From: a virus
Lineage: Duplodnaviria; Caudoviricetes
IMG/VR virus record: IMGVR_UViG_3300013105_000022
Location: 72,516-136,515 of that record
Direction: 5' to 3' (one strand)
DNA length: 64,000 bases
Part shown: positions 1,769 to 18,519 of the stretch, piece after piece
Position numbering within the stretch: position 1 is the stretch's first letter
How the letters are laid out: the number at the start of each line of letters is the position of its first letter
Translations under genes and position numbers: made by a program
The notes under the pieces: model-generated
Seen by the model: only the letters and a program-made list of their open reading frames with translations
The model's database searches: none
What the model was told of the DNA's origin: nothing

Positions 1769-2061
1769 GCGGCATGATGGAACACGAAGACTTCTACTTC
1801 GCTATCAAGCTTTCTAGCTCAGCTTCTCTGGATGAATCACCTAAGCACAACTGGGTTGAGGATGCCGGTGGGCTTCCTCCCTATGTTCGAGAACTCGCCC
1901 GAGGCATCATGAAGAGCGGAAAGAGTAAGTCGCAGGCAATTGCTATTGCCATCAGCCGCATCAAGAAGTGGGCCTCGGGCGGGGATGGCGTTGATCCGGA
2001 TACTCGTGCAAAGGCCGCGAAGGCTCTGGCACAGTGGGAAGCACTAAAGGCCAAGAAGTAG
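1765..2061 (+). CDS. Small basic head-associated protein (NWVE..GGLP.Y...IA.A....KKWA type)
   Basis: Motif resembles small domains in actinophage head modules; has an IKLS site like other head proteins here. Confidence 0.5.
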   Translation: MSGMMEHEDFYFAIKLSSSASLDESPKHNWVEDAGGLPPYVRELARGIMKSGKSKSQAIAIAISRIKKWASGGDGVDPDTRAKAAKALAQWEALKAKK

Positions 2062-2080
2062 AACATTTGGGCGAATGTAC

Positions 2081-2089
2081 TGCTAAGAT
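2081..2089 (+). promoter_or_regulatory. Extended -10 promoter (TGcTAAGAT), leaderless terminase mRNA
   Basis: TGn-TANNNT ending 6 nt before the ATG; no RBS. Confidence 0.55.
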
Positions 2090-2095
2090 GGTAGT

Positions 2096-3991
2096 ATGTC
2101 CAAATTCATGACCATGCATGAGTTCTTCAGCGAGCCTGAAGAAACTCTACAAGAGGGAAGTCTAAGCTCTATCTTTGCCGAGGAGCCGGTAGACCTTCGT
2201 ACCTTTATCCGAGACCCCAAATTCCTCGGACAGACGAACGTCGAGCTATCTCCAGAACAGGCGCGTGCCATTCAGGTAATTGAGCGTGTCTACTACCCAG
2301 ACCTATATCCGCGCATGGCGGAAGAGTTCGAATTCGGTGAGTACTGGGGTCAGGACATCCCTAGCGCTAACCTCATCACTCTCCAGTGGGGTAAGGGTTC
2401 TGGTAAGGACGCCATTTGCCGTTGGGCCTCGCTCCGTGTGGCATATCTACTTCTCTGCCTCAAGTCTCCGCAGTTGTACTTCGACATGCCTGAGACTGAC
2501 TCCATTCACCTTCTGAACATTGCCGCTAACGCTCCTCAGGCTAACCGAGCGTTCTTCAAGCCTATGACCACTGCCGTCAAGCAGGGATGGTTCAAGGGCA
2601 AGGCAATCATCCGTCAGGGTGAAATCGAGTACGACAAGAACATCTTCGCCGTGTCTGGTCACTCTGACGCTGAAGGTCAAGAAGGTCTGAACATCATGCT
2701 TGGTGTTGCTGACGAGATTGACGCCTTCAAGGCCAAGGATGAGATGGTCGGAACGGGTAAGAAGCTCCGTGAGGCTTCCACATCCGCTGAGTCGATTCTA
2801 GAAATGCTGAAGACCTCCGCATCTACTCGATTCCCGAAGACCTACAAGCGCGTAGCCATTTCCTACCCTCGCTACCTTGGATCGACTATCCAGCAGTTGA
2901 CCACAGAAGGTCGTGAGTCGAACGAGAAGTACGGCGCGCGCTCTATTCACTACGTCTCCGGACCCCTAGCTACTTGGGATGTCAACCCCCGTATCTCTGG
3001 TAAGGAAGACTTCTTCGAGGACTATGAGAAGGACCCTGTAGGTTCTGCCGCCAAGTACGAGTGCAAGCCTTCCCGAGCTATCGACCCGTTCTTCCGCAAC
3101 ATGGACATCTTCAAGCTGGCCGTGGATAACGATGTCATGCCTCTCACCATCGACTACAAGCCGGTGAACTACTACTCCCCTCACTACCACCGCAATGTGC
3201 GTGGCTGGGAGCCGATCTTCCACTTCTCTCCTGACTTCAAGCCGATCCAGGGTGCTCGCTACGCACTCCACGGTGACCTTGCTATCAAGGGTGACCGTGC
3301 CGGTATCGCTATGAGCCACGTCGAGAAGTGGGAACACTTCGACGCCACTCTGGTGGACAATGAGGGAGCGAACTATCAGAAGGAGATTGTTCGTCCTCTG
3401 ATTCGCAATGACTTCACCATCTCGTTCGAGGCTAAGGCTGAGGCACGAGACACCAATGGTGACCCACTTCCCCGCGAAATCCAGATTCGATGGGTACGAA
3501 TGCTGGCTGAAGAACTCCAGAACCGTGGATTCCCTATCAGCCTATTCACTTTCGACAGCTTCCAGTCTGCGGACACTATTCAGATTTTCACGTCCCAGGG
3601 CGTGGAGTCAAACAAGGTATCTACCGACCGTGATCCATCCCTATGGTCGTCCCTCAAGGACGTAGCATCTGAGGGTCGTCTACGCATGCCATTCGATCAG
3701 CTACTTATGAATGAGCTTGAGGCACTTTCTAGAATTGACAACGGAAAGGTAGATCATCCGCCGAACGGCTCTAAGGACTTGGCGGACGCATTCTGTTGCT
3801 CAATCGCTGGTGCCATTGTCGTAGGTGGAGAGGAATCCCCCGATGGCGCGATAGTAGATGTCGGAGGCGCATACTTCATGACGGGTCCTGCGCTTAGCCC
3901 GCTAGAGGGCATGGACGACGTATCGCAGACGTTGGGCGATCCGATGGGTATGCCACTAGGATTCCCGGATAGAGGAACATATGGCTGGTAA
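2096..3991 (+). CDS. terL: Terminase large subunit
   Basis: Walker A WGKGSGKD, Walker B GVADEID, nuclease motifs HGDLA..GD and DHPPNGSKDLADA. Confidence 0.92.
   Translation: MSKFMTMHEFFSEPEETLQEGSLSSIFAEEPVDLRTFIRDPKFLGQTNVELSPEQARAIQVIERVYYPDLYPRMAEEFEFGEYWGQDIPSANLITLQWGKGSGKDAICRWASLRVAYLLLCLKSPQLYFDMPETDSIHLLNIAANAPQANRAFFKPMTTAVKQGWFKGKAIIRQGEIEYDKNIFAVSGHSDAEGQEGLNIMLGVADEIDAFKAKDEMVGTGKKLREASTSAESILEMLKTSASTRFPKTYKRVAISYPRYLGSTIQQLTTEGRESNEKYGARSIHYVSGPLATWDVNPRISGKEDFFEDYEKDPVGSAAKYECKPSRAIDPFFRNMDIFKLAVDNDVMPLTIDYKPVNYYSPHYHRNVRGWEPIFHFSPDFKPIQGARYALHGDLAIKGDRAGIAMSHVEKWEHFDATLVDNEGANYQKEIVRPLIRNDFTISFEAKAEARDTNGDPLPREIQIRWVRMLAEELQNRGFPISLFTFDSFQSADTIQIFTSQGVESNKVSTDRDPSLWSSLKDVASEGRLRMPFDQLLMNELEALSRIDNGKVDHPPNGSKDLADAFCCSIAGAIVVGGEESPDGAIVDVGGAYFMTGPALSPLEGMDDVSQTLGDPMGMPLGFPDRGTYGW
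3848..3856 (+). promoter_or_regulatory. Late motif GCGATAGTA inside the terL 3' end, upstream of portal
   Basis: Exact motif copy 133 nt before the portal ATG. Confidence 0.55.
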
Positions 3992-5879
3992 GGACGACGA
4001 AGACAACAAGCTTGAGGCAGGCGAGGTCGCGGCTAACAACCCGAACGCCTTCCCAAAGCCGAAGGACAGTGAGCTTGGCATCGAACTCGGTGTGGAGCAA
4101 AACCTGCCCTTTGCTGTACCCTTCAGCGACGGCCTTGGAAAGAAGGCACGCCAGGACAAGGAGCTACGAGAGCTTCTTCGTGACGAGTCCGAAGAGCAGG
4201 GTCCTTCTGTATCCCAGCTAATCGCTATGCGCCGTCTGGATGGTCAGGCTCGTGCTCTGTATCGTCTACTCACGCTCCCTCTGCGTGCCGCTCTCTCCAA
4301 GAGCACCTTCATCCCCGCCGATGGGGGAGAAGAAGAAGCAGAGTTCATCGATCACCAGTTCAACCTCCCACCGGCATCCGGTGGTATGACTGTGACCTTC
4401 CACAGGTTCATGGCTCAGCTTCTCCAGGCTCTGTTCGACGGGTTCTCTCCTTTCGAGATGGTCTACGACTACTCTACGTACGGTCCTATGAAGGGCAAGT
4501 ACTACCTGAAGAAGATGGCCTACCGCCAGCCAAACACCATCACCGTTATCGAGGACGAGGATGGCCACTTCGCTGGCTTCCGTCAGCGCGCCTACGCTAA
4601 CGGCAAGGCTTACGATGTCGTGATCCCTCGCGAGCGTGCGTTCTACTTCGCCGCTCAAGAGGAAGAGCGCAAGTACTACGGTGTGAGCTTCTTCCAGAGT
4701 GCGTTCTACCACTACGACAAGAAGATCAAGATGTACTACATCGCCCACCTGGCCGCTCAGCGTGCCGCCGTGGGTACTCGTGTGGGTAAGTTCCCGACCA
4801 ACATGTCTGAGATTCAGAAGCGCCAGTTCGCTCAGAACCTCTCCAACCTGGCCGTGGCACAGTGGATGCTCGTTCCGATGGACGCTGAGGTTGAAATCCT
4901 CAAGGACAGCGGTTCCTTCGCGTTCCTGGACTACATCAACCACCACAACCACATGATGGCTCAGTCCATCCTTGCGGGCTTCTTCGACTCTGACACAGGT
5001 ACAGGCGAGAGTGACAACACTCTCGTCAAGTTCGGCACGCCTGGCGACACCATGTTCTTCCTGATGCTTCAGGCCATCATGGACGACATCGCCAACTCGA
5101 TCAACCACTACATCATCCCGCCGCTCATCGACTGGAACTTCTCGGGTGGAAAGTACCCGACATTCCAGTGGTCTGAGATTACGGCTGAGCAGAAGTCTCT
5201 CATCTACGAGACCTTCAAGACGCTCGCCAACGCCGAGACTGTATCCCCTGAGTTCACCCGTGAACTAGAAATCAAGATGGCCGATGACATGGGCCTTGAG
5301 ATTGACTGGGATGAGGTCGAAGCTCGCGAGGCCATTGAGAAGGAATCCGAGAACATGGTCAACGGTCTCGACGCAGACGGTAAGCCTCTGCCGAAGGACG
5401 CTATGGGCAACCCGATCCTCCCAGGTCAGGACAACCCGGATGCCGCCCTCCAGGCTTTCGAGACTCAGGCCGCTGGCGCTGGTGCCATTCCAGAGGCTAC
5501 AGATGAAGAGAAGAAGGCTGTCAAGCTCTCTGCCGACGAGAGCCTACTAGACATGGCTTCTGACCTTCTGAAGCTCGCCCGTCCTACCTCCGGCTCGTAC
5601 CGAACGGTACGTACTCAGGAGGGTGCAGAGCGCTTCGACGTATCCATTGGTCAGCAGATTCCTGCTGGCGCTGGACGAGACGAAGAGGGCGGCAAGCGCA
5701 AGGTAACTGTCGAGCGTCTGATGTCTCTCCGTTCCCAGTTCGATGAGGCTAAGCGCGCCGGTAACCAGGCCGTTGCCGACAAGGCTATGGAAGCCCTGAA
5801 GAAGGCAGTCTACGACTACACAGGTTCCTGGTCTCCTTCCATGTTCATCCAGACGATGAAGAAGCTCCCGACTAAGTAA
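3981..5879 (+). CDS. Portal protein with C-terminal extension
   Basis: Follows terL; LFDGFSPFE, YYGVSFFQSAFYHY and IIPPLIDWNF...YP features of Mu gp29/DUF935-like portals. Confidence 0.85.
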   Translation: MAGKDDEDNKLEAGEVAANNPNAFPKPKDSELGIELGVEQNLPFAVPFSDGLGKKARQDKELRELLRDESEEQGPSVSQLIAMRRLDGQARALYRLLTLPLRAALSKSTFIPADGGEEEAEFIDHQFNLPPASGGMTVTFHRFMAQLLQALFDGFSPFEMVYDYSTYGPMKGKYYLKKMAYRQPNTITVIEDEDGHFAGFRQRAYANGKAYDVVIPRERAFYFAAQEEERKYYGVSFFQSAFYHYDKKIKMYYIAHLAAQRAAVGTRVGKFPTNMSEIQKRQFAQNLSNLAVAQWMLVPMDAEVEILKDSGSFAFLDYINHHNHMMAQSILAGFFDSDTGTGESDNTLVKFGTPGDTMFFLMLQAIMDDIANSINHYIIPPLIDWNFSGGKYPTFQWSEITAEQKSLIYETFKTLANAETVSPEFTRELEIKMADDMGLEIDWDEVEAREAIEKESENMVNGLDADGKPLPKDAMGNPILPGQDNPDAALQAFETQAAGAGAIPEATDEEKKAVKLSADESLLDMASDLLKLARPTSGSYRTVRTQEGAERFDVSIGQQIPAGAGRDEEGGKRKVTVERLMSLRSQFDEAKRAGNQAVADKAMEALKKAVYDYTGSWSPSMFIQTMKKLPTK

Positions 5880-5887
5880 GGGGCGCT

Positions 5888-6673
5888 ATGACCTCCTTCA
5901 AGGAGCAGATGCGAGTACACGAGGCCTCCAGGGAAGCAACCTCTGCCCTGGAGGCTGTGTCTCGTAGCGCCATCGAGCGTATCTTCTCCGAGTGGGAGTC
6001 AGACATTCATGATGCCCGTAGCGTGCGCTGGGAGCTAGAACGAGTAATTCGTAACGCCTACCGATCCAGCGCTAACGTAGCTCGTAACGTGGCCTCTGAA
6101 TCCTCTGGCCTGCCTGACTGGTCATCTGCCGAAGTCTTCAACTCTTCCTACCTCCAGTCGCTGATCCTGGACGTTCGTCGCAACCTCCGTGACTACAAGA
6201 GCGGCAACCTCTCCAGGGAAGGTGCAGTCTCTCGAATCCAGCACTCTGCCGGTGTAGCCGCACAGCGTGGATACACGGATCAGACCATCGCTTCCTACAC
6301 AGAGCTTGAGGACTTCGGCCTGGAGCTACGCAAGTACTGGGTGGCCAACTTCGTCAACAACACCCCGTGCCCTGCATGCACGCGCCTACACGGCACGGCT
6401 GTGGGATTGCATGAGATGTTCCGCACGGAGACAGGCGAGCCTGGAGTCTACCGTGACCTCATTGGTCCTCCCCGCCATCCGAACTGCAAGTGCCGCCTCT
6501 ACATCTTCGTGGTCTCGCTGGAGAACGCCTTTGAGTCTCCCAACTTCGAGAAGCCTCAGGAAGCTCCTCAGATGATGAGCACTGACGACGTGAAGAAGAT
6601 GCCGCTGTCTATCTTTGGAGCCGTCAGAGCGAGCCTGAGCGCCATTCTGAGCTTCCTACGAAAGGGACGCTGA
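5888..6673 (+). CDS. MuF-like minor head protein
   Basis: PCPAC..LHG and PPRHPNCKC motifs; directly after portal. Confidence 0.8.
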   Translation: MTSFKEQMRVHEASREATSALEAVSRSAIERIFSEWESDIHDARSVRWELERVIRNAYRSSANVARNVASESSGLPDWSSAEVFNSSYLQSLILDVRRNLRDYKSGNLSREGAVSRIQHSAGVAAQRGYTDQTIASYTELEDFGLELRKYWVANFVNNTPCPACTRLHGTAVGLHEMFRTETGEPGVYRDLIGPPRHPNCKCRLYIFVVSLENAFESPNFEKPQEAPQMMSTDDVKKMPLSIFGAVRASLSAILSFLRKGR

Positions 6674-6894
6674 TGCACTTCCAATCCTCCCGTATCATGT
6701 TCGACTCCCTGGACGCCGCAGTGGAGGGACTACTGGTTGTGCTCGAAGACGCACGCGAGACAGTCTTCAAGTACAGCTTCGGTTCCCTATCCGCAGAACA
6801 GGTCTACGCCTCTGGTCTCATGCTCATCGGAGAGATTGAGGAAGTCACCCACAAGCTGGAGCAGATCGCGGGCACTACCCGGTACGACGACTGA
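6673..6894 (+). CDS. Hypothetical protein
   Basis: TGATG coupling with the MuF gene. Confidence 0.55.
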   Translation: MHFQSSRIMFDSLDAAVEGLLVVLEDARETVFKYSFGSLSAEQVYASGLMLIGEIEEVTHKLEQIAGTTRYDD

Positions 6895-6896
6895 GC

Positions 6897-6905
6897 GCGA
6901 TAGTA
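6897..6905 (+). promoter_or_regulatory. Late motif GCGATAGTA upstream of the giant gene
   Basis: Exact intergenic copy; an extended -10 (TGgTATGAT) also lies at 6951-6959. Confidence 0.65.
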
Positions 6906-6992
6906 ACGGTAAATCTTCTTTCCCCGCTAGAGAATTCTTCTTCAATCTTCTGGTATGATGGAGAGGTACGTCCAGAGACTTTAGGAGTCTGC

Positions 6993-9900
6993 GTGAGCAC
7001 CGAACTAGAACTTGAGTTCATCGAACTAGCCGTAGGTAAGGGCCGTCGAGTCCAGACCGCTGAAGGTGCTAGGTTCTACGGTCAGCCTATTGGCACGCTC
7101 ATCACGCCGGACATGATTAAGAAGGCGCGCTCTGCCGCCAAGGCAAAGGGCATCACCCCGCCCAAGGGTGGCCTCTCTCCGAAGAAGGCACCCCAGGTAT
7201 CTGTAGGTGCTGGCAAGGCGTCTCCCGCTGGCAACTTCAATGCTGATCCATCCGCTGGAGCACCTGTAGGCGCTGACACTTCCGGCAAATTCCAGGTGAA
7301 GCCCTCCTCTATCAAGGGTCCTCAAGGATTCAAGGTCGGCGCTACTCAGTACTCCGCTCCTTCCGGCTCTAAGCTCATTCGTCCGAAGAATCAGGAAGAG
7401 TTCGCGTACGTCGTAACTCCGGATGGTTCTGTTCACGCCTTCACCGCCGCCGGTGAGCTAGACGTACCCGACTACCTAGAGCCTGTCCTTACGAAGAAGT
7501 TCAAGGACCTCAAGGGTGATGACACCCTCTACAAGGTAGACACCTTCGATGCCCCGTCCTCCTTGGCTGAGCAGAAGCCAGGCTCTACGCTGTCCAAGAA
7601 CGGCAAGCCTCTGTTCAAGAAGCAGGCCAACGGCGTGTGGATGAACGAGGACATCGGTGCTGAGCTTACTGACGATGACCTACAGCGCCTCTACGATGGT
7701 GGTAGCTTCGATCTGGAGCCTGCCAACACTGTCGAGGACATCGACTTCTCAAAGCTGACTACTGACGAGCTTCAGGCCGCTCTTGAGGCTATGCCTGACG
7801 GCAAGCAGATGAAGTTCTCCAAGACTGTCGTAACCAAGAAGAACGGCAAGTGGAACTCCTCCGCCACAGGAAAGAACACTTCCTCTGAGGACCTGGCATA
7901 CATGTCAGCAGGTACCGGCTCTATCACAGACAAGCTCGACAACCCTGAGGTAGCCCCAGAGCCTGGTAAGGCTGACAAGGCCGCTAAGGAGAAGGAAGCT
8001 TCTGACCCGCTTCGTAATCCAGAAAATGAGCTAAATGAGACAAATGCTCAGAAGAAGAAGGCGACAGAAGCCAAGGCTACGGGCGCGGAAATTCTAAAGT
8101 CCGAAGTCGGAGCAGTGGTATACCATGACGTTGCCGGTGCCCTCACCAAGCAGGACAATTCCACCTGGGAGAACACTGACGGAGCCTCCTTCGCAGAAGT
8201 AAATATTGTTGACTCTGCCAACATGGGTTACATCTCTAATGAGCCTTGGACTCCAGAGCAGAAGGATGCTAAGGAGAAGTTCGACGCCGAGAACACCCTG
8301 ACGGTTGGGGGCAAGGAGCTATCCACCGTAGGTAAGTTCGGTGAGAACGACCGCTCCGAGGCCATCAAGGCAGATGGCGGATCGACACCGAACGTCTTCG
8401 AGCTAGAAGCTACTCCAGAGAACGTTAAGACGTTCCGTGACGCCATGCAGAAGTCGCTTGAGGGAAACCCTTACTCTGCATCCGTGTACGTCTACGACGA
8501 GTCCGACTACGCGGGTATGCGCCTCTTCCTGTCCGACGATGGAAAGAGCGGTATCGCCCTGCACGACGGAGACGAGATTGTCTCCGTCTTCAGCGACCCC
8601 AAGAGCAAGAACAAGAAGGTAGCTCGCCACCTAATCTCCGTAGCTGTGGAGAACGGTGGAAAGCGCCTAGACGCCTTCGACACAGTGCTACCGGGAATCT
8701 ACGCTAAGGAGGGCTTCATTGTCAAGTCTCGCCTGAAGTGGGATGACGACTTCGCCCCGGAGAACTGGAACAAGGAAACCTTCAAGAAGTTCAACAACGG
8801 CGAGCCGGATGTTGTCTTCATGCAGTACGAGAAGGGCATGGAAGACCTCGACTACGAGCCGGGTTCCGGAGACTACGTAGATGACTACGACAAGGGCCTA
8901 GCATCCACCGGCGGTAAGGCACAGGACGAGAACGACTATCGTCCTGAGATTGGCGACCCTGATAACGAAGAGAACAGCGTAGAGACCACCAAGAGCGGCT
9001 ACGTTGTCAACGATGAGGTCAAGTCTTCCCTAGCTGAGGGTAAGAAGATCAACGCCATCCTCAACCTGAAGAACTCCAACAAGGGGATGTCTCTGGCTGA
9101 GGCCAAGAAGGAAATCGACGCGATGGTTCTCGAAGGGTACCAGCCCGGAGACACCGTAAGTGGAAACATGCTCTGGGAGCTTCCAGAGGGTGCCAAGATC
9201 AAGACCGCTTCAGGTGGAGAGTTCACCAAGAACGAGAATGGCAACTGGGTCACCAAGAACGGTGGTGTCTTCTCTTCGAGCGATATGTACGATGACGGTA
9301 TGGATGCTGAGATTGTAAGCAACCCTGCCGCCAAGCAGAAGAAGATCGAAGCACCGAAGGTTGAAGAGCCTGAGGTTGATCCTGATGAGGAGTTCCACAG
9401 CCTTCTCGAAGCGAATGAAGTCACAGTCGAGAAGCTGATTGACCTCAAGGCCGGAGACATCATCTCCAACGGTGAGTTTGAGTTCACCAAGGATGAGAAC
9501 GACAAGTTCGTCAACGACCAGTTCCTATACGAGTTCGACGCTGACGACTTCTCCCAGGACATCGACAATGGCAAGATTTCCATTGTCGAGCAGACCGGCT
9601 CTGACGATGAAGAAGCCGTAGATGCAGACACCGCAACTGTAGACGACCTCAAGGCTATGAAGCCGGGTGACTCCGTGAACATCGCGGATTTCAAGTACGT
9701 CATGAATGATGATGGGAAGCTGGTTTCGGACACGAGCGGGTGGCTGTTTGACCCGCAGGAATTCGAGCAGGACCTAAAGACGTGGGGTTCTAAGAAGAGT
9801 GACATCACTCCGTCTCAGACTGTCGAAAAGTACGGCGAGAACGGCAACGAGTTCCTTCCAGAGGCTCAGGCTAAGCAGGCCATCGAGTCCCTGGAAGCAC

Positions 9901-12900
9901 ACTCTGGTTTCCAGATCAAGTACGGACTGAAGTCTCTGCCTGAGGATCACCCGCTCAAGAACCAGGAGTACCTTGACGGGTACCTCGCTGACGCCAAGCA
10001 GAACTTCTCCGACCTTTCCCCTAAGGCCGCTCTGCTCGCTCAACTGAAGCTGGATGCCAAGGTAGAGAAGCTGGACGAATGGGAGAAGGAGCTTCTTGCA
10101 GAGGGAAGCACTGACAAGATTCAGATCGGCTCTCGTACCCCGAAGACAAACGCTACCGGTGTAACCGGAGGACAGTTCAACAAGGGCGACGTTCAGAGTG
10201 CCATCGACATCCTGGAGAACTACAACGGCAAGCTGTTCAAGAGCGAACTGAACAAGAAGGGCAACCCTCTCGGTAAGCTGTCCCCGAACGACATCGTAGG
10301 CTTCGATAAGGACAAGACCCTTACCAAGCAGAAGTTCATTGATCTTCTGAAGAAGAAGGTTGCTCCGAAGGAAGCTCCTGTAGAAGAGGCTATGAACAAG
10401 CAGTTCGACATCTCTCAGGAGCCTGAAGAGGGTAAGGTTGTCGCCGCTGATCCGGACATGAGCGCTCTCAAGAATGCCCCGGTGGGTACCATTGTGAGCA
10501 GGCCCACTCCTCCTTACATGGGTACGCCTAACGGTCTTCAGAAGTACCAGAAGAACGAGGACGGCACTTGGTCTAACATTGAGGGAACTACTCCACCAAA
10601 GCAGTCTGATAGCGTCTTCTTCTACAACACAGCCATGAGTGGTGGGCTGAAGTGGAGCGCTCCGGATGTTCCAGAGAGGGAAGACAACGGCCAGTACGCT
10701 GACGGTGACCTGATCCAGTCATTCGAGAACTTCAAGAATCTGCCGGTCGGTTCTGAAGTTAGCTTCCAGTCTAAGTACGGTGGAGACCCCTCTACCTATG
10801 TAAAGACGCGCCCCGACACCTGGGTAGTATCCGATGACCCAGACCTCAAGCTGAAGGATCAGAACTTCAAGAACTCCGTCGAGGGTGGATCACTCAGCTA
10901 CAAGAAGACAGAGCCTACCGCTCCTGATGCCGACGACTCCCTGGATGCTACGCTCGACGCGCACTTCCAGATCATGGCCGAGCTTGACAAGGCTGTTTCC
11001 GTTCTGCCCGCTGAAGAGCGCGGCGAGAACGGTGATGGCTATGTCATCGTGCACACGGAGAAGGGTCCAAAGATCACGTGGGGTAAGTTCGGTGGTGGAG
11101 GTATCGCTACCGTAGCCACGGACGAGAACGGTGTGAAGAAGGTCCTCATCGGTAAGCGTGGAGACCGCGATGAGTGGTACCTGCCGGGTGGAGCTATCGA
11201 TGAGAACGAGAGCCACCTTCAGGGTTCGCTCCGTGAGTTCACCGAAGAAGTAGAAGATGGTGACGCCATTCTGGACAGCATCCAGATCACGCAGGCGTAC
11301 CAGGCTGTCATCGGAAAGATCGAAGGAACGGACAAGGACTGGAAGTACGTCACGTCTGTTGCTACACTGCCTTCCATGATCGATGTCAAAGCACCGGATA
11401 GCATCGAGGATTGGGAACTCAAGGAGTACCAGTGGTTTAGTGCTGAAGAGCTTAATGTGCTCGATGCTGAGGGTAAGCTTCACCCTGCCCTGGGAGGAGG
11501 AAACCTTGCCAAGATGGTAGGTTTCTACGACACGGAAGTTGACGACCTCCACGCAGACATCCTCTCCCTCATGAACGAGCCGGACAACCTCAACGAGGAT
11601 CGATACGACATCTCCAACTGGAAGAAGGTCGATGGAGGTCAGGGCGGATCGAACCCTGGCGGCGTGTACGAAGACCCTCTGGGCAACAAGTACTACGTCA
11701 AGGAGTCCAACGGCGGCGAAGCACCGATGCATAACGAGGTCATCGGTGGCGCACTCTACAAGGCCGCTGGTGTCAACAGCAACGAAGTCTTCTTCGTTAC
11801 TAAGGGCGATCAGCGTCTTCTGGCGACCCCGTGGATCGAGAACAACGGGCAGAAGATGCTTGACGTTCTCGACGGCAACGAAAATGAGTTCAGGAAGAAG
11901 GCCCAGGCTGACTTCGCTATCGATGCCTGGCTGGACAACTACGATGTCGTCGGTATCGGCCCGTGGAACCTTGTGGCTGACGAGAACGGTGATCCTCTAC
12001 GACTTGATCCAGGCGGCTCGATGATGTTCCGTGCTACTGGAGCAGAAAAGTCGTGGTGGAGCGACGAGCCTACCGCTATCGATGACATGCGCTTCGGTTC
12101 CAGCAACTCCAGTGCCTACACTTACCTCCCGAATGTCTTCGGTGATATGACGGGCGATCAAGTGAAGGAATCTGCGAAGAAGCTCCTCGCGGTGACCCCC
12201 GAGAAGATCAGCACTATCGTCAACTCTTCCGGGCTTGACGAGGATACTAAGGCCAAGCTGTACTCGACTCTGGTGATCCGCCGTGAGAAGATTCTGGACC
12301 GCTTCGGTCTGACTCCTGAGGGAACGACGATTGACGTGCCCGAAGCCGTTTCTGGTACCCCTGCATTCACTAAGGGTACGACAGTCAAGCTGAAGGGTAC
12401 CGGTCAGCAGTTCCAGGTTGAGCTTTCTAACAATGAGGCTACAGCCGGTCTCGTAGACGGCAAGTTCCTGGTCTTCCTGAACGACGAGCTTACGGGCGAT
12501 CTGGAAGCTAACTTTAGTGCTCAGCACGCCTTCACATCGAACGGTGAGAACTTCAAGCAGGCTGAGGCCGTTGAGGTCATCGACCCGAAGAACCCCGGAC
12601 AGAAGATTCCAGGATTCGTCATGAAGGCCGACTGGTCAAGTGGTCTCGTACAGGTCATGACAGGCGCTGAGGGTGGAGAAACAACCAGCATCGAGGTAGA
12701 CAAGTCTCACATCACGAAGATGCCTCAGCAGGCTCCACAGCGCGTCGAGCTTCCAGAGGGCTACGCTAAGGTACCTGAGGGCCAGAAGGCATTCGGCAAG
12801 TACCCGAACCTGGGTTACTACGTCACCGTGGACGAGAGCGACGAGACTCACGTCTATGGAATCGATGGCAGTTCTTGGGCAGGAGGACCTAAGGCCGCTT

Positions 12901-14861
12901 ACGAGCAGGCATTCAAGAACCCTGAAAGCTCCTGGGAAGCTTGGAGCGGAGATGGTTCCGCTCCAGAGCCGCAGGCTACCCCAGAGGTCGAGACTCCTGC
13001 CGATGGCCCGAAGGACAGCGCGGGTCAGGTGGTCGCTATGGGCGACAACGTGACTATCGTCAAGTACAACAAGGGCGGACTCTCCAACAAGGCCACCATC
13101 GTCTCGATCAACTCCGAGAAGGGAACCGCAAAGGTTCGCCGTCTGGATGAGAACGGTGTGCCTATGGTGGGCGAGAACGGCAAGCCTCTGTACGCTACGA
13201 TGTCGCTGTCCAGCCTCCGCAAGGACAACCAGACCGTGAACGAGAGTGGTCTGCCTACAGGCATCACCATGTCTGGTGGAGACAAGAACAGCCCTCTGTA
13301 TGGACAGCCTGAGCCTGTCGCACCGGCGGCTACTCCACAGACCGAATCTGATGCCCCAATCGTCTCTGACGAGTGGATCAGCAAGGCCACAGAGGCTTAC
13401 AAGGCCTACCGCTCCAAGAAGGGCCTCCCTGAGAAGGACCTGAAGCTGTCTACCACGGCTTGGGGTCCTATCGAGAGAGCCATGAAGGGTGACGAGTCTG
13501 CGCTGACCGCTATCAAGACCAAGGGTTACCTGGACGAAGACCCGGCCCTGTATGAAGAAATTCAGCAGGCCATCGACGCACAGAAGCTCAAGTACGCTGA
13601 CATCATCGCTCAGCACGAGCAGGCTGTAACCGAATACCAGAAGCAGAAGTCCGAATGGATGACTGCCAATGGTGTTGCCTCCTACACGCCGATCAAGCAC
13701 GAGCAGACTCTTCAGATGAACGAGAACGAGTCCAAGGACTGGGCACTCAAGAAGTACACCAACATCTTGAGCAAGCTGACCTCGAAGGCTAAGCAGGGTC
13801 TCCAGAGTCAGAAGGTCTCGTCGGACTGGCAGACGGTCATTCGCAAGCTTCCAGCCATCCTGGGTCTTCGTCGTGAGGACGTAGCTAGCGCGCCTGGAGT
13901 GCATGAAGCGAACATGCAGACGTGGGACAACATCAAGGAAGCCACAGACCAAGCAGGGCCTGTAGGAGAGGCCTTCCGCGCCGTACGTACCATCTCATTC
14001 GACCGACTGGTTGGCCCGGACGGTAACCCTCTGACCTCTGATAGTGACCTGACCAAGATCATCGGTTCCATTCAGAAGGATCACGGAGCTATGGAGATTG
14101 TTCCAGGTTCCGTCGATCACGGTGGTAAGATCGCTGACTTCTACCCTGTCATCATGGACCTCGCGGTTCCTGCCGACGCCAAGGGAATGTACACGGGCTT
14201 CGAAGAGTTCTCTTACAACGAAGAGCACGGAATCATCATGGAGCCTGGACTGGCCATGTACATCTGGGGTGCCGAGCAGAAGAAGATTCCTCAGTTGGGT
14301 GGACTTACGAAGTGGGTCGTCAAGGCCTCTATCATCCCGCGCGATGTTCTGCCGTACATGAACAACTTCCAGGGTGATCCGATGAGTCACAACATCCTGA
14401 TCCCTGGTAAGGACACCACGACCGGTATCACTTCATCTCCGTTCTCGGAAGAGAACTGGGGAAAGAGCACTCTCGCGGAGATTAAGAAGGCCAAGATCGA
14501 TGACGCCGTTGTGGACTTCGATGGCAAGCAGTGGAAGAAGATCAACGACATCTCAACGGGAACGAAGATTTGGTGGCAGAACGGTACAGGTAAGAAGGCC
14601 TCTGACCAGTTCCTCTTCGACAACTTCATGGGCGAGAAGCCCGCTCCGGAAGTCTTCGAGACCGTACAGCCTAAGGGATACAGGTGGACTGAATCCAAGC
14701 TGGACAATCTGAGCATCGGAGATAACGTCGTAGACAGTGACGGAGATATCTGGCAAAAGATTTCTGGCGGTGAATGGAAGCTGATCCAGAAGAATGGCCC
14801 TAGCAACTACCTCGAAGTGGGCGAAGTTCGCTCCAGCTATGCCGTCGCATCCTACATGTAA
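6993..14861 (+). CDS. Giant polyvalent protein (GNAT-like, L7/L12-CTD-like, Nudix, PI3K/HipA-like kinase, degenerate ART, repeats), probably packaged in the head
   Basis: AGGAG RBS + GTG; full Nudix box G-AIDEN-E-SHLQGSL-REFTEE; kinase motifs GGSNPGG, YYVK, NE, DAWLDNYD, RLDPGG; located between MuF and protease. Confidence 0.8.
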   Translation: MSTELELEFIELAVGKGRRVQTAEGARFYGQPIGTLITPDMIKKARSAAKAKGITPPKGGLSPKKAPQVSVGAGKASPAGNFNADPSAGAPVGADTSGKFQVKPSSIKGPQGFKVGATQYSAPSGSKLIRPKNQEEFAYVVTPDGSVHAFTAAGELDVPDYLEPVLTKKFKDLKGDDTLYKVDTFDAPSSLAEQKPGSTLSKNGKPLFKKQANGVWMNEDIGAELTDDDLQRLYDGGSFDLEPANTVEDIDFSKLTTDELQAALEAMPDGKQMKFSKTVVTKKNGKWNSSATGKNTSSEDLAYMSAGTGSITDKLDNPEVAPEPGKADKAAKEKEASDPLRNPENELNETNAQKKKATEAKATGAEILKSEVGAVVYHDVAGALTKQDNSTWENTDGASFAEVNIVDSANMGYISNEPWTPEQKDAKEKFDAENTLTVGGKELSTVGKFGENDRSEAIKADGGSTPNVFELEATPENVKTFRDAMQKSLEGNPYSASVYVYDESDYAGMRLFLSDDGKSGIALHDGDEIVSVFSDPKSKNKKVARHLISVAVENGGKRLDAFDTVLPGIYAKEGFIVKSRLKWDDDFAPENWNKETFKKFNNGEPDVVFMQYEKGMEDLDYEPGSGDYVDDYDKGLASTGGKAQDENDYRPEIGDPDNEENSVETTKSGYVVNDEVKSSLAEGKKINAILNLKNSNKGMSLAEAKKEIDAMVLEGYQPGDTVSGNMLWELPEGAKIKTASGGEFTKNENGNWVTKNGGVFSSSDMYDDGMDAEIVSNPAAKQKKIEAPKVEEPEVDPDEEFHSLLEANEVTVEKLIDLKAGDIISNGEFEFTKDENDKFVNDQFLYEFDADDFSQDIDNGKISIVEQTGSDDEEAVDADTATVDDLKAMKPGDSVNIADFKYVMNDDGKLVSDTSGWLFDPQEFEQDLKTWGSKKSDITPSQTVEKYGENGNEFLPEAQAKQAIESLEAHSGFQIKYGLKSLPEDHPLKNQEYLDGYLADAKQNFSDLSPKAALLAQLKLDAKVEKLDEWEKELLAEGSTDKIQIGSRTPKTNATGVTGGQFNKGDVQSAIDILENYNGKLFKSELNKKGNPLGKLSPNDIVGFDKDKTLTKQKFIDLLKKKVAPKEAPVEEAMNKQFDISQEPEEGKVVAADPDMSALKNAPVGTIVSRPTPPYMGTPNGLQKYQKNEDGTWSNIEGTTPPKQSDSVFFYNTAMSGGLKWSAPDVPEREDNGQYADGDLIQSFENFKNLPVGSEVSFQSKYGGDPSTYVKTRPDTWVVSDDPDLKLKDQNFKNSVEGGSLSYKKTEPTAPDADDSLDATLDAHFQIMAELDKAVSVLPAEERGENGDGYVIVHTEKGPKITWGKFGGGGIATVATDENGVKKVLIGKRGDRDEWYLPGGAIDENESHLQGSLREFTEEVEDGDAILDSIQITQAYQAVIGKIEGTDKDWKYVTSVATLPSMIDVKAPDSIEDWELKEYQWFSAEELNVLDAEGKLHPALGGGNLAKMVGFYDTEVDDLHADILSLMNEPDNLNEDRYDISNWKKVDGGQGGSNPGGVYEDPLGNKYYVKESNGGEAPMHNEVIGGALYKAAGVNSNEVFFVTKGDQRLLATPWIENNGQKMLDVLDGNENEFRKKAQADFAIDAWLDNYDVVGIGPWNLVADENGDPLRLDPGGSMMFRATGAEKSWWSDEPTAIDDMRFGSSNSSAYTYLPNVFGDMTGDQVKESAKKLLAVTPEKISTIVNSSGLDEDTKAKLYSTLVIRREKILDRFGLTPEGTTIDVPEAVSGTPAFTKGTTVKLKGTGQQFQVELSNNEATAGLVDGKFLVFLNDELTGDLEANFSAQHAFTSNGENFKQAEAVEVIDPKNPGQKIPGFVMKADWSSGLVQVMTGAEGGETTSIEVDKSHITKMPQQAPQRVELPEGYAKVPEGQKAFGKYPNLGYYVTVDESDETHVYGIDGSSWAGGPKAAYEQAFKNPESSWEAWSGDGSAPEPQATPEVETPADGPKDSAGQVVAMGDNVTIVKYNKGGLSNKATIVSINSEKGTAKVRRLDENGVPMVGENGKPLYATMSLSSLRKDNQTVNESGLPTGITMSGGDKNSPLYGQPEPVAPAATPQTESDAPIVSDEWISKATEAYKAYRSKKGLPEKDLKLSTTAWGPIERAMKGDESALTAIKTKGYLDEDPALYEEIQQAIDAQKLKYADIIAQHEQAVTEYQKQKSEWMTANGVASYTPIKHEQTLQMNENESKDWALKKYTNILSKLTSKAKQGLQSQKVSSDWQTVIRKLPAILGLRREDVASAPGVHEANMQTWDNIKEATDQAGPVGEAFRAVRTISFDRLVGPDGNPLTSDSDLTKIIGSIQKDHGAMEIVPGSVDHGGKIADFYPVIMDLAVPADAKGMYTGFEEFSYNEEHGIIMEPGLAMYIWGAEQKKIPQLGGLTKWVVKASIIPRDVLPYMNNFQGDPMSHNILIPGKDTTTGITSSPFSEENWGKSTLAEIKKAKIDDAVVDFDGKQWKKINDISTGTKIWWQNGTGKKASDQFLFDNFMGEKPAPEVFETVQPKGYRWTESKLDNLSIGDNVVDSDGDIWQKISGGEWKLIQKNGPSNYLEVGEVRSSYAVASYM

Positions 14862-17490: not shown

Positions 17491-18519
17491 GTGCCTGATA
17501 TTTCACTCTTCCAGCCAACGGTGCTGATGGGTGTCGTTGAGAAGTTCACGGCACCTGAGAATCTTACAATGCTCAACCGCATTGACAAGACTCCGCACCC
17601 GTTCCCGACTGCACAGTGGGACGTTATCCGTGGTTCGCGCGCTATTGCTCGCCCGAACGTTCCGAACTCTGAAGCCCACATCGTACCTCGCCTCGGTCGC
17701 GAGCAGATGGCCGCTAGCTTCATCTACCTTCGTGAGAAGAAGGTATTCGAGCCGACGACTCTGTACTGGCTACGTACCCCTGGTGAAATCGCCAAGGTAA
17801 ACGCCGAGCGTGCAGTTCTCCGTGAAATCACGGACCTGAACCGTCGTTTCGACAACTTCGCTGAGTACGCCATTTGGCAGATGTTCACGGGTCAGTTCAA
17901 CCTTCCCGAGGACGGCGATGCTCCTGCTATCAACGTTGACTACAAGCTCCCAGCTTCGCACAAGGTCAACGCCGGTACTTCTTGGGCAACCGCTACTCCG
18001 AAGCAGATCATCGCTGATGTTCGCGCTTGGAAGCGTCTCGTCAACCGTGACGGTCAGGTAGTTGCTAACGAGGCTTACGCTTCCGAGAACTCCATCACCG
18101 CCATCTTCGACTCCTTCGCTTCGGCTGGTACCACTCCCGCGTACCTCCTGTCCGACCGCATGAAGGACCAGTACTACCGTGAGGGTCTGCTTCCAGGCTT
18201 CCTCGGTATCAACTGGAAGATTCAGGATGCCGTCTTCGACGCCACGGGTGCCTCGTACACCGAGAACCCGACCGATCCTGGTGCAGAGAAGCCGTTCCTG
18301 GCCGACAACCGCATCATCTTCGGTAACTTCACCGAGGGTCGTCCGTTCGAGATGATCGTTGGACCGACCGCTGACCTTGAGGCTCCTCAGGGCTACACGG
18401 GCAAGTTCGCCAAGACCTGGCAGGACAAGGACCCGTCCGGTCGTCAGTACCTCCTAGAGTGGAACTTCCTGCCGGTTCTGAACCGTCCTGAGCAGTTCGT
18501 TTACGCCAACGTCGCGTAA
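17491..18519 (+). CDS. Major capsid protein (lambda gpE-like)
   Basis: AGGAG RBS + GTG; 342 aa; DP...YL......PVL..P C-terminal pattern; follows decoration gene; strong terminator after it. Confidence 0.88.
   Translation: MPDISLFQPTVLMGVVEKFTAPENLTMLNRIDKTPHPFPTAQWDVIRGSRAIARPNVPNSEAHIVPRLGREQMAASFIYLREKKVFEPTTLYWLRTPGEIAKVNAERAVLREITDLNRRFDNFAEYAIWQMFTGQFNLPEDGDAPAINVDYKLPASHKVNAGTSWATATPKQIIADVRAWKRLVNRDGQVVANEAYASENSITAIFDSFASAGTTPAYLLSDRMKDQYYREGLLPGFLGINWKIQDAVFDATGASYTENPTDPGAEKPFLADNRIIFGNFTEGRPFEMIVGPTADLEAPQGYTGKFAKTWQDKDPSGRQYLLEWNFLPVLNRPEQFVYANVA

Follow-up and report, generated by a model that had tools for sequence, protein, structure and literature searches.

The window analysed here is a stretch of 64,000 nucleotides (positions 72,516 to 136,515) from the complete 136.5-kb virus record IMGVR_UViG_3300013105_000022 (Duplodnaviria; Caudoviricetes), and it contains a head module in which two proteins, a portal protein and a giant multi-enzyme protein, carry the same short motif. 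Both copies are encoded in the head module, in the stretch that runs from the portal gene to the major capsid gene (Table 1). It can be said with confidence that the motif is a real, conserved tag of head-module proteins and, judging from sequence, it probably marks proteins that are carried inside the heads of large lytic actinobacterial phages.

Two copies of one motif in a phage head module

The resemblance was noted in a sequence-only reading, which quoted one peptide from each protein; both are reproduced exactly by translating 5565-5660, which corresponds to residues 529-560 of the 632-aa portal, and 7017-7103, which corresponds to residues 9-37 of the 2622-aa open reading frame (ORF) at 6993-14861. 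The consensus drawn up in that reading occurs twice in the six-frame translation of the window, compared with 3e-8 occurrences expected from composition. A hidden Markov model (HMM) trained on 108 copies, all from unrelated proteins outside this genome, finds only these two sites in the six frames (next best E 0.46) and places both in the same family, the portal copy being somewhat degenerate, with D-V-S in place of the consensus G-x-P. Neither the window nor the rest of the 136.5-kb genome yielded a third copy. At the DNA level the two copies are identical at 29/60 positions and use the same codon for two of nine shared residues, hence conservation acts on the protein and the pair does not stem from a recent duplication. 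Megablast of the region against phages gave no match.

Table 1. Positions of the motif copies, the candidate protease sites and the surrounding head genes in the window.
Feature	Position	Strand	Remark
Portal gene, 632 aa	3981..5879	+	Portal_Mu domain (residues 83-427), acidic linker, appended C-terminal module
LLKLA, portal residues 529-533	5565..5579	+	Candidate maturation-protease site; the portal's only hydrophobic-hydrophobic-x-L-[A/S]
Motif copy 1, portal residues 541-560, RTVRTQEGAERFDVSIGQQI	5601..5660	+	External HMM E 9.6e-5
gp14-like module, motif plus ~50-aa helical bundle, fused to portal	5601..5876	+	
MuF-like minor head protein, 261 aa	5888..6673	+	May be a neighbour or a partner of the tag
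Giant polyvalent protein, 2622 aa, with N-terminal tag, GNAT-like region and Nudix domain	6993..14861	+	
Acidic 13-residue N-terminal leader ending FIELA (7017-7031)	6993..7031	+	Candidate propeptide and protease site
Motif copy 2, giant-protein residues 18-37, RRVQTAEGARFYGQPIGTLI	7044..7103	+	External HMM E 1.8e-13
Probable Mu-like prohead protease/scaffold, 419 aa	15514..16773	+	Five hydrophobic-hydrophobic-x-L-[A/S] sites
Major capsid protein, lambda E type	17491..18519	+	Phage_cap_E E 1.7e-29, phrog_29; downstream end of the head module

The core of the motif comprises about 23 residues, R-x-V-R-T-P-E-G-A-x-x-Y/F-G-x-P-I-G-S/T-x-I-x-x-D, and is nearly invariant. Eight copies from four divergent phages (the window phage, Microbacterium phage Magritte, Gordonia phage DalanDe and Brevibacterium phage Cantare) have R, V, T, E, G, A, I, G and I in common without exception. 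Among 124 distinct copies the core spans -4 to +18 around the Thr and reads R(93%)-[RYHK]-V(98%)-R(98%)-T-[PAV]-E-G-A-x-x-[YF]-G-x-P(97%)-I(97%)-G-[ST]-x-I(100%)-x-x-D(69%), where percentages are given only for positions that the selecting pattern left free or fixed loosely. A word-indexed profile search matched 190 proteins. At thresholds of E<=1e-3 and E<=1e-10, an exhaustive profile search of 1.84 billion representative proteins gave 802 and 135 clusters; single proteins hold as many as 6-7 copies, and many giants of 2500-3400 aa have just one, at the N-terminus. No family was found for the motif segments in Pfam or NCBIfam at E<=1, nor for either motif region in PHROGs at E<=0.01, and the string RTPEGA has no occurrence in the searchable literature; the family is apparently undescribed so far. 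On one 38.7-kb IMG/VR contig (L029, 3301-14990), at least five copies are spread over four adjacent ORFs around a Portal_Mu gene, and all are of the sub-type ...G-A-P-I-G-T-P-I-V-x-D-x-x-x-G-K-L-K-A, whose sequence suggests an added beta hairpin after the core.

The portal copy lies in a module of its own. Magritte is the closest cultured relative of the window phage, and its portal (gp13) is 55% identical to the window portal across residues 26-496. The Magritte portal ends earlier, and the overlapping 108-aa gene gp14, which starts M-V-E-R-K-V-R-T-P-E-G-A, matches the window portal tail along its whole length (tblastn E 4e-7). The tail also aligns over its full length with P0008 and 12 metagenomic proteins of 107-109 aa, at 32-40% identity. 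The proposal of the sequence-only reading that the last ~100 aa of the portal are appended is thereby borne out, since they align end to end with stand-alone proteins of ~108 aa and form a separate gene in Magritte, and it is this appended tagged module that makes the window portal ~100 residues longer than the portals of its relatives. The gp14-like module is either fused to the portal, as in the window and in P0051, P0054, P0056, P0061, P0062, P0078 and record G003, or encoded by a separate gene right behind it. In two further Portal_Mu portals (L028 and L033) the motif lies ~100 residues past the portal domain and is followed by a different domain; portal-tag fusions have therefore arisen more than once. 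In Magritte, gp13 and gp14 overlap by 8 nt (10665-10672), and a candidate protease site, MVALS, lies 8 residues ahead of the portal stop. The arrangement looks like the split of an ancestral fused gene or, conversely, the window form looks like a fusion by loss of a stop codon.

The second tagged protein is kept as well. The Magritte giant gp17 begins ...I-L-E-L-A-A...R-Y-V-R-T-P-E-G-A-E-K-Y-G-L-P-I-G, and a tagged pair, consisting of a small protein at or after the portal and a giant protein, is present in 9/9 Magritte-like records examined.

The window portal matches Portal_Mu (PF06074, E 5.8e-35, 121.6 bits vs a cut-off of 23.9) and phrog_113. Between it and the giant gene lie a 73-aa ORF and the MuF-like gene, whose product matches several PHROG head-morphogenesis families and, below the cut-off of 29.6 bits, Phage_Mu_F (E 4.8e-6, 27.7 bits). 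The giant protein has a GNAT-like region at residues 501-612 (phrog_2563, E 4e-11) and a Nudix domain at residues 1374-1490 (PF00293, 34.9 bits); by eye, a PI3K/HipA-like kinase segment (~1550-1700) and a C-terminal region resembling ADP-ribosyltransferases (ARTs) were also noted. With at least two unrelated enzyme domains and a gene placed between those for MuF and the scaffold, it belongs to the polyvalent proteins; no MuF domain was matched in it by Pfam or PHROGs, and it is not a MuF-effector fusion. A lambda-D-like decoration protein is encoded downstream of the giant gene. The 419-aa protease/scaffold ORF has a weak match to Mu-like_Pro (PF10123, E 8.6e-4, under the cut-off) and none in PHROGs, and its TTG start is probably placed too far upstream. 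After its first candidate site (FVELS-RTPSGKLYRK) this protein resembles the portal at LLKLA-RPTSGSYRTV.

Occurrence of the tag in other phages and the proteins that carry it

A degenerate DNA pattern for the core matched 23 loci in IMG/VR, compared with four in 596 Gb of prokaryotic genomes (185,579 genomes), and two of these four lie on one 126-kb phage-like contig. This contig (CAZIWB010000017.1; L007, L009), from a metagenome-assembled genome (MAG) labelled 'Cellvibrionaceae', carries genes for two tagged proteins, one of 127 aa and one a giant of >2300 aa (3186-aa open frame), as well as a MuF-like ORF. It resembles a Magritte-type phage that was binned into the MAG, hence the host label is doubtful. 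The only copy found in an isolate bacterial genome, that of Gordonia amarae NBRC 15530 (NZ_BAED01000034.1, L008, 7769-7809, minus strand), lies in an open frame of ~240 aa and may be a prophage remnant.

Enrichment among head-module proteins, which the sequence-only reading had named as one check of its proposal, was found, in that the copies placed in six reference phage genomes are all in the head module. Magritte, DalanDe, Cantare, Forza and ChisanaKitsune together hold 14 copies, every one of them on the coding strand between the annotated portal and capsid genes, and those of GMA6 lie between a Phage_portal ORF identified with Pfam and the capsid gene. At least two copies are present in 15/15 records checked, and the named hosts (Microbacterium, Gordonia and Brevibacterium) are all Actinobacteria. 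Of 27 loci for which a few kb around the motif were fetched, 18 have a MuF domain in that stretch, and the domain is also present in five reference genomes checked directly and in the window. It is a separate gene in the window and Forza, forms one gene with the portal in Cantare, ChisanaKitsune and GMA6, and is represented in Magritte by the homologous gene gp15, which served as a MuF seed without a score of its own.

The domains joined to the tag are diverse. Topoisomerase IB is the commonest, and the others include 2H/2'-5' ligase, Zeta toxin/AAA_33, ADP-ribosyltransferase (ADPrib_exo_Tox), PI3/4-kinase-like, GNAT, PG-binding/LysM, S78 prohead protease (Peptidase_S78), MuF and Portal_Mu domains; MuF and tag share one polypeptide in P0012 and P0129.

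Several neighbouring genes were noted alongside. At L019 a Portal_Mu portal (1938-4493, minus strand) is interrupted by an intein (Intein_splicing and HNH_3), and the next gene downstream (260-2065) combines a MuF domain with the tag. Fusions of Phage_portal and Phage_Mu_F are encoded in Cantare (L003 3960-6341) and ChisanaKitsune (L034 5670-8324), and GMA6 Orf11 (L035 5324-7891), annotated as hypothetical, is a fusion of the same kind; all three have an E-x-K-[AGS] site in the inter-domain linker. In Forza (L004) a degenerate copy, I-R-K-V-K-S-A-A-G-A-E-R-Y-D-Q-P-I-G, lies at ~11980-12022, in frame just 5' of the start of gp85, whose annotated start is probably too far downstream. A gene of the 2H/'RNA ligase' type lies right behind the portal gene of DalanDe (L002 948-1913) and one to two genes past the portal in Cantare (L003 6713-7417), ChisanaKitsune (L034 8532-9503) and L020 (6150-7013); in other phages the 2H domain is fused to the tag.

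Position, upstream sites and predicted structure

The tag tends to lie at the N-terminus: the first copy starts within 45 residues of it in 112/184 proteins (61%), and 26 proteins begin directly with the tag. Internal copies are often preceded by E-x-K, which occurs at most 11 residues upstream in 65/124 of them (52%), far over the compositional expectation. The sequence-only reading had placed a (K/E)LA site shortly before each window copy, and this is correct, as LLKLA lies 7 residues ahead of the core R (R-T-V-R-T) in the portal and FIELA 4 residues ahead of it (R-R-V-Q-T) in the giant protein. In the lineage of the window the upstream element generalises to hydrophobic-hydrophobic-x-L-[A/S], with LLELA, LLALA and LLSLA in relatives of the portal and ILELA, IIELA, VVELA and VLELA at the place of FIELA in homologous giants. 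The ORFs of the window contain 12 such sites in ~20,500 residues, five of which fall in the protease/scaffold (0.28 expected; 0/5000 shuffles reached five), while the portal and the giant protein have one each, directly before the tag. Among the first 25 genes of Magritte, sites occur only at the C-terminal end of the portal, in the giant gp17 (one at the N-terminus and one more) and in the scaffold gp19, which has six. For the HK97-type lineages, many E-x-K-[AGS] sites were seen in the delta domains of capsid proteins, the tail of the protease and the linkers of portal-MuF fusions. The idea that E-x-K is a fixed mark of the delta-domain boundary was dropped, as the sites do not line up across four capsids, and E-x-K remains suggestive there. 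The simplest reading is that the upstream elements are maturation-protease sites, which would put the tag at the N-terminus of each mature product.

Structure prediction with AlphaFold2 (AF2) suggests, with confidence at the model's own level, that the tag is a compact unit. For the giant N-terminus (26 alignment rows) the predicted local distance difference test (pLDDT) score is ~90 across residues 21-40, and the model has a helix in the leader (3-13), another short one (23-29) between single beta bridges and a third (39-51), after which it is disordered. For the portal tail (19-row alignment) the mean pLDDT is 68, with the motif modelled as strand, short helix and strand at ~80, followed by three helices. 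No credible fold match to either model was found in the PDB (best Foldseek E 1.4; best VIA-align Z 2.2).

Similarity between copies over 26 residues is 62.6% within a protein and 56.6% between proteins (permutation P<5e-4). Copies of one protein share rare substitutions, namely D or K at +8, A at +2 and A at +9; their flanks are unrelated (7-11% identity). These within-protein variants between unrelated flanks point away from generic DNA and towards a lineage-specific partner, be it another tag copy or a protein of the phage.

A possible docking tag for internal head cargo

The sequence-only reading proposed that the motif is a shared signal for head targeting, DNA binding or ejection. The part that stands is that it is a common signature of head-module proteins, in the six reference genomes and the window; the function behind it can be named with less assurance. 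We give an even chance to the reading in which the tag serves to dock or retain internal head cargo at the portal/MuF vertex, and this reading is favoured because of the fusions to portals and protease proteins, the head-module context, the N-terminal rule and the lineage-specific copies. Its steps, namely encapsidation, cleavage, docking and ejection, are ones that we infer from sequence. Tagged proteins would be built into the procapsid near the portal/MuF vertex, and the prohead protease would cut just upstream of the tag, at hydrophobic-hydrophobic-x-L-[A/S] in the Mu-like lineage and at E-x-K-[A/G/S] in HK97-type lineages, leaving the tag at the mature N-terminus. The tag would then dock to a phage-encoded partner or to another tag copy, and docking would hold the cargo at the portal until it exits with the DNA. 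In the window phage, the 2622-aa multi-enzyme protein would pair with the ~100-aa gp14-like module, whether the latter is cut free of the portal C-terminus or stays tethered to it.

Several observations weigh against docking. The head proteins differ among the phages that have the motif (Portal_Mu vs Phage_portal portals, lambda-E vs HK97 capsids), hence a single conserved phage partner is not obvious, and MuF, the only shared candidate, is found in many head modules regardless. The tag is basic, as are the linkers behind it, which would also fit DNA binding. The similarity of copies within a protein could stem from gene conversion limited to the motif or from recent duplication, and the multi-copy proteins compared include close relatives and are not independent. 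The site patterns are short and were defined after inspection of the data, and E-x-K shows no consistent alignment at the delta-domain boundary when four HK97-type capsids are compared with HK97 gp5.

Among the alternatives, a chance or compositional resemblance of the two window copies, with no common function, has a negligible probability and is counted as refuted. It could appeal to pairwise BLASTP, which gives no significant match between the two proteins or segments, but that result is blank because the shared match is too short, for which reason family HMMs were used instead; the E values assigned by the external HMM, the retention of the motif in both contexts in Magritte, a relative at 55% identity, and the 802 clusters with the same core all speak against chance. 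Unlikely, though less so, is that the tag is a small nucleic-acid-binding unit that keeps internal proteins on the packaged genome or its leading end, with no specific protein partner. The charge of the core (~+4, typically followed by linkers rich in Lys, Arg and Pro), the frequent fusion to DNA enzymes such as topoisomerase IB and the conservation of the tag across differing portal and capsid families, as expected for a generic ligand, are all in keeping with this. On the other hand, a look for small DNA-binding folds (helix-turn-helix (HTH), HeH/SAP, ribbon-helix-helix) gave no Pfam or NCBIfam match over the motif at E<=1 and no fold match, rare lineage-specific substitutions within a protein are not expected for a generic DNA ligand, and DNA binding offers no obvious reason for the N-terminal position rule. 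An identity with HeH or SAP domains was considered separately and rejected, as the matches in P0014 and P0103 fall away from the motif copies.

Two further roles are each improbable. The tag could be solely an exosite, C-terminal to the scissile bond, by which the prohead protease finds its substrates, with no later role; the spacing of 4-7 residues between site and core R in the window, E-x-K upstream of about half of the copies and the abundance of the same sites in scaffold and delta domains agree with this, but the 26 proteins that start with the tag, like all the ~108-aa gp14-like proteins, have nothing upstream to cut, and scaffold and capsid substrates carry sites without a tag. Alternatively, the tag could act after injection by binding a conserved actinobacterial host factor, so that the injected enzymes are localised or stabilised, which would suit the exclusively actinobacterial named hosts and the effector-like nature of the joined domains. 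Such a role sits poorly with the tag on portals and on proteins containing the S78 protease, which act in assembly, and with a gp14-like module in which no effector domain is recognisable; the co-variation of copies within a genome also points to a partner on the phage side.

Among known systems, Duda and colleagues are said to have described a C-terminal encapsidation signal of the HK97 maturation protease, in which a short terminal segment suffices for entry into the procapsid. That signal lies at the C-terminus and belongs to the protease alone, whereas the actinophage tag is common to many proteins, some of them with an S78 (HK97-type) protease domain. The portal gpH of Mu is reportedly trimmed as the head matures; literature searches on Mu portal processing returned nothing usable.

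The capsid targeting sequence (CTS) of phage T4 is found on the internal proteins IPI-III and Alt and is removed by the gp21 prohead protease (reviewed in PMC3012670). Like the actinophage tag, it is a short N-terminal element, and an ADP-ribosyltransferase is among the proteins that carry it. Its neighbouring prohead-protease site would have a counterpart in the candidate site beside the tag, and the packing into the head and injection of CTS-bearing proteins would have theirs in the tagged proteins. As for processing of the CTS kind, candidate sites are enriched in the protease/scaffold and precede the tag, with the conserved element lying past the site. The CTS is a leader that is cut off, whereas the tag, past the candidate site, would remain on the mature protein; moreover, the two are unrelated in sequence, and the tag is repeated inside polyproteins, is also present on portals and belongs to actinophages rather than T4-like phages. 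Encapsulin cargo-loading peptides (consensus D-G-S-L-G-I-G-S-L-K-G; PMC7925596) are likewise short conserved peptides on diverse enzymes, which they direct into an HK97-fold shell. They are, however, C-terminal, extended and ~10 residues long with a G-S-L core, whereas the tag is N-terminal in 61% of proteins, comprises ~23 residues with a predicted helix and has the core I-G-[ST]-[VIP]-I. Homology to them is not claimed, as the resemblance is superficial and limited to the four residues I-G-S-(V/L) in the second half of the motif.

The tagged proteins themselves have precedents. Giant multi-enzyme proteins in portal/MuF head modules, predicted to be packaged and injected, were described by Iyer et al. 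(2017; PMC5512222), and the domain repertoire given there for these polyvalent proteins overlaps with that of the tagged proteins (ART, 2H, Nudix, GNAT and Zeta-like kinases). The link to the head is made in that account through MuF/portal domain fusions and gene context, whereas the window giant has no MuF domain, MuF being encoded by a gene of its own; a keyword search of the paper's text found no small N-terminal tag of this kind. A genomic study of Microbacterium phages (PMC7302621) reports MuF/VIP2 fusions along with giant virion genes; the tag is absent from its account. By analogy, the tag may work most like the T4 CTS, on proteins of the polyvalent class, though in sequence and fold it shows no relation to the tags known so far.

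A wider proposal, which we consider doubtful as it stands, is that any protein with the tag at its mature N-terminus could dock at the portal/MuF vertex, or onto other tag copies, and be delivered into the host with the DNA; the tag would then be a portable cargo label of general use in actinophage heads, a counterpart of the encapsulin peptides and the T4 CTS. In that case the protease site next to it would divide giant polyproteins into several effectors, each with a tag of its own. The entry of polyvalent proteins into heads and their exit have largely been inferred, with MuF/portal fusions and the T4 targeting sequence as the handles so far. A tag so sharply conserved and easy to recognise, present on portals, a small portal-associated protein, prohead-protease fusions and dozens of effector types, would give a sequence rule by which the injected proteome of large actinophages could be predicted and would supply a concrete peptide for encapsidation and ejection tests, and it might serve to fill phage heads with foreign proteins in laboratory hosts such as Microbacterium and Gordonia.

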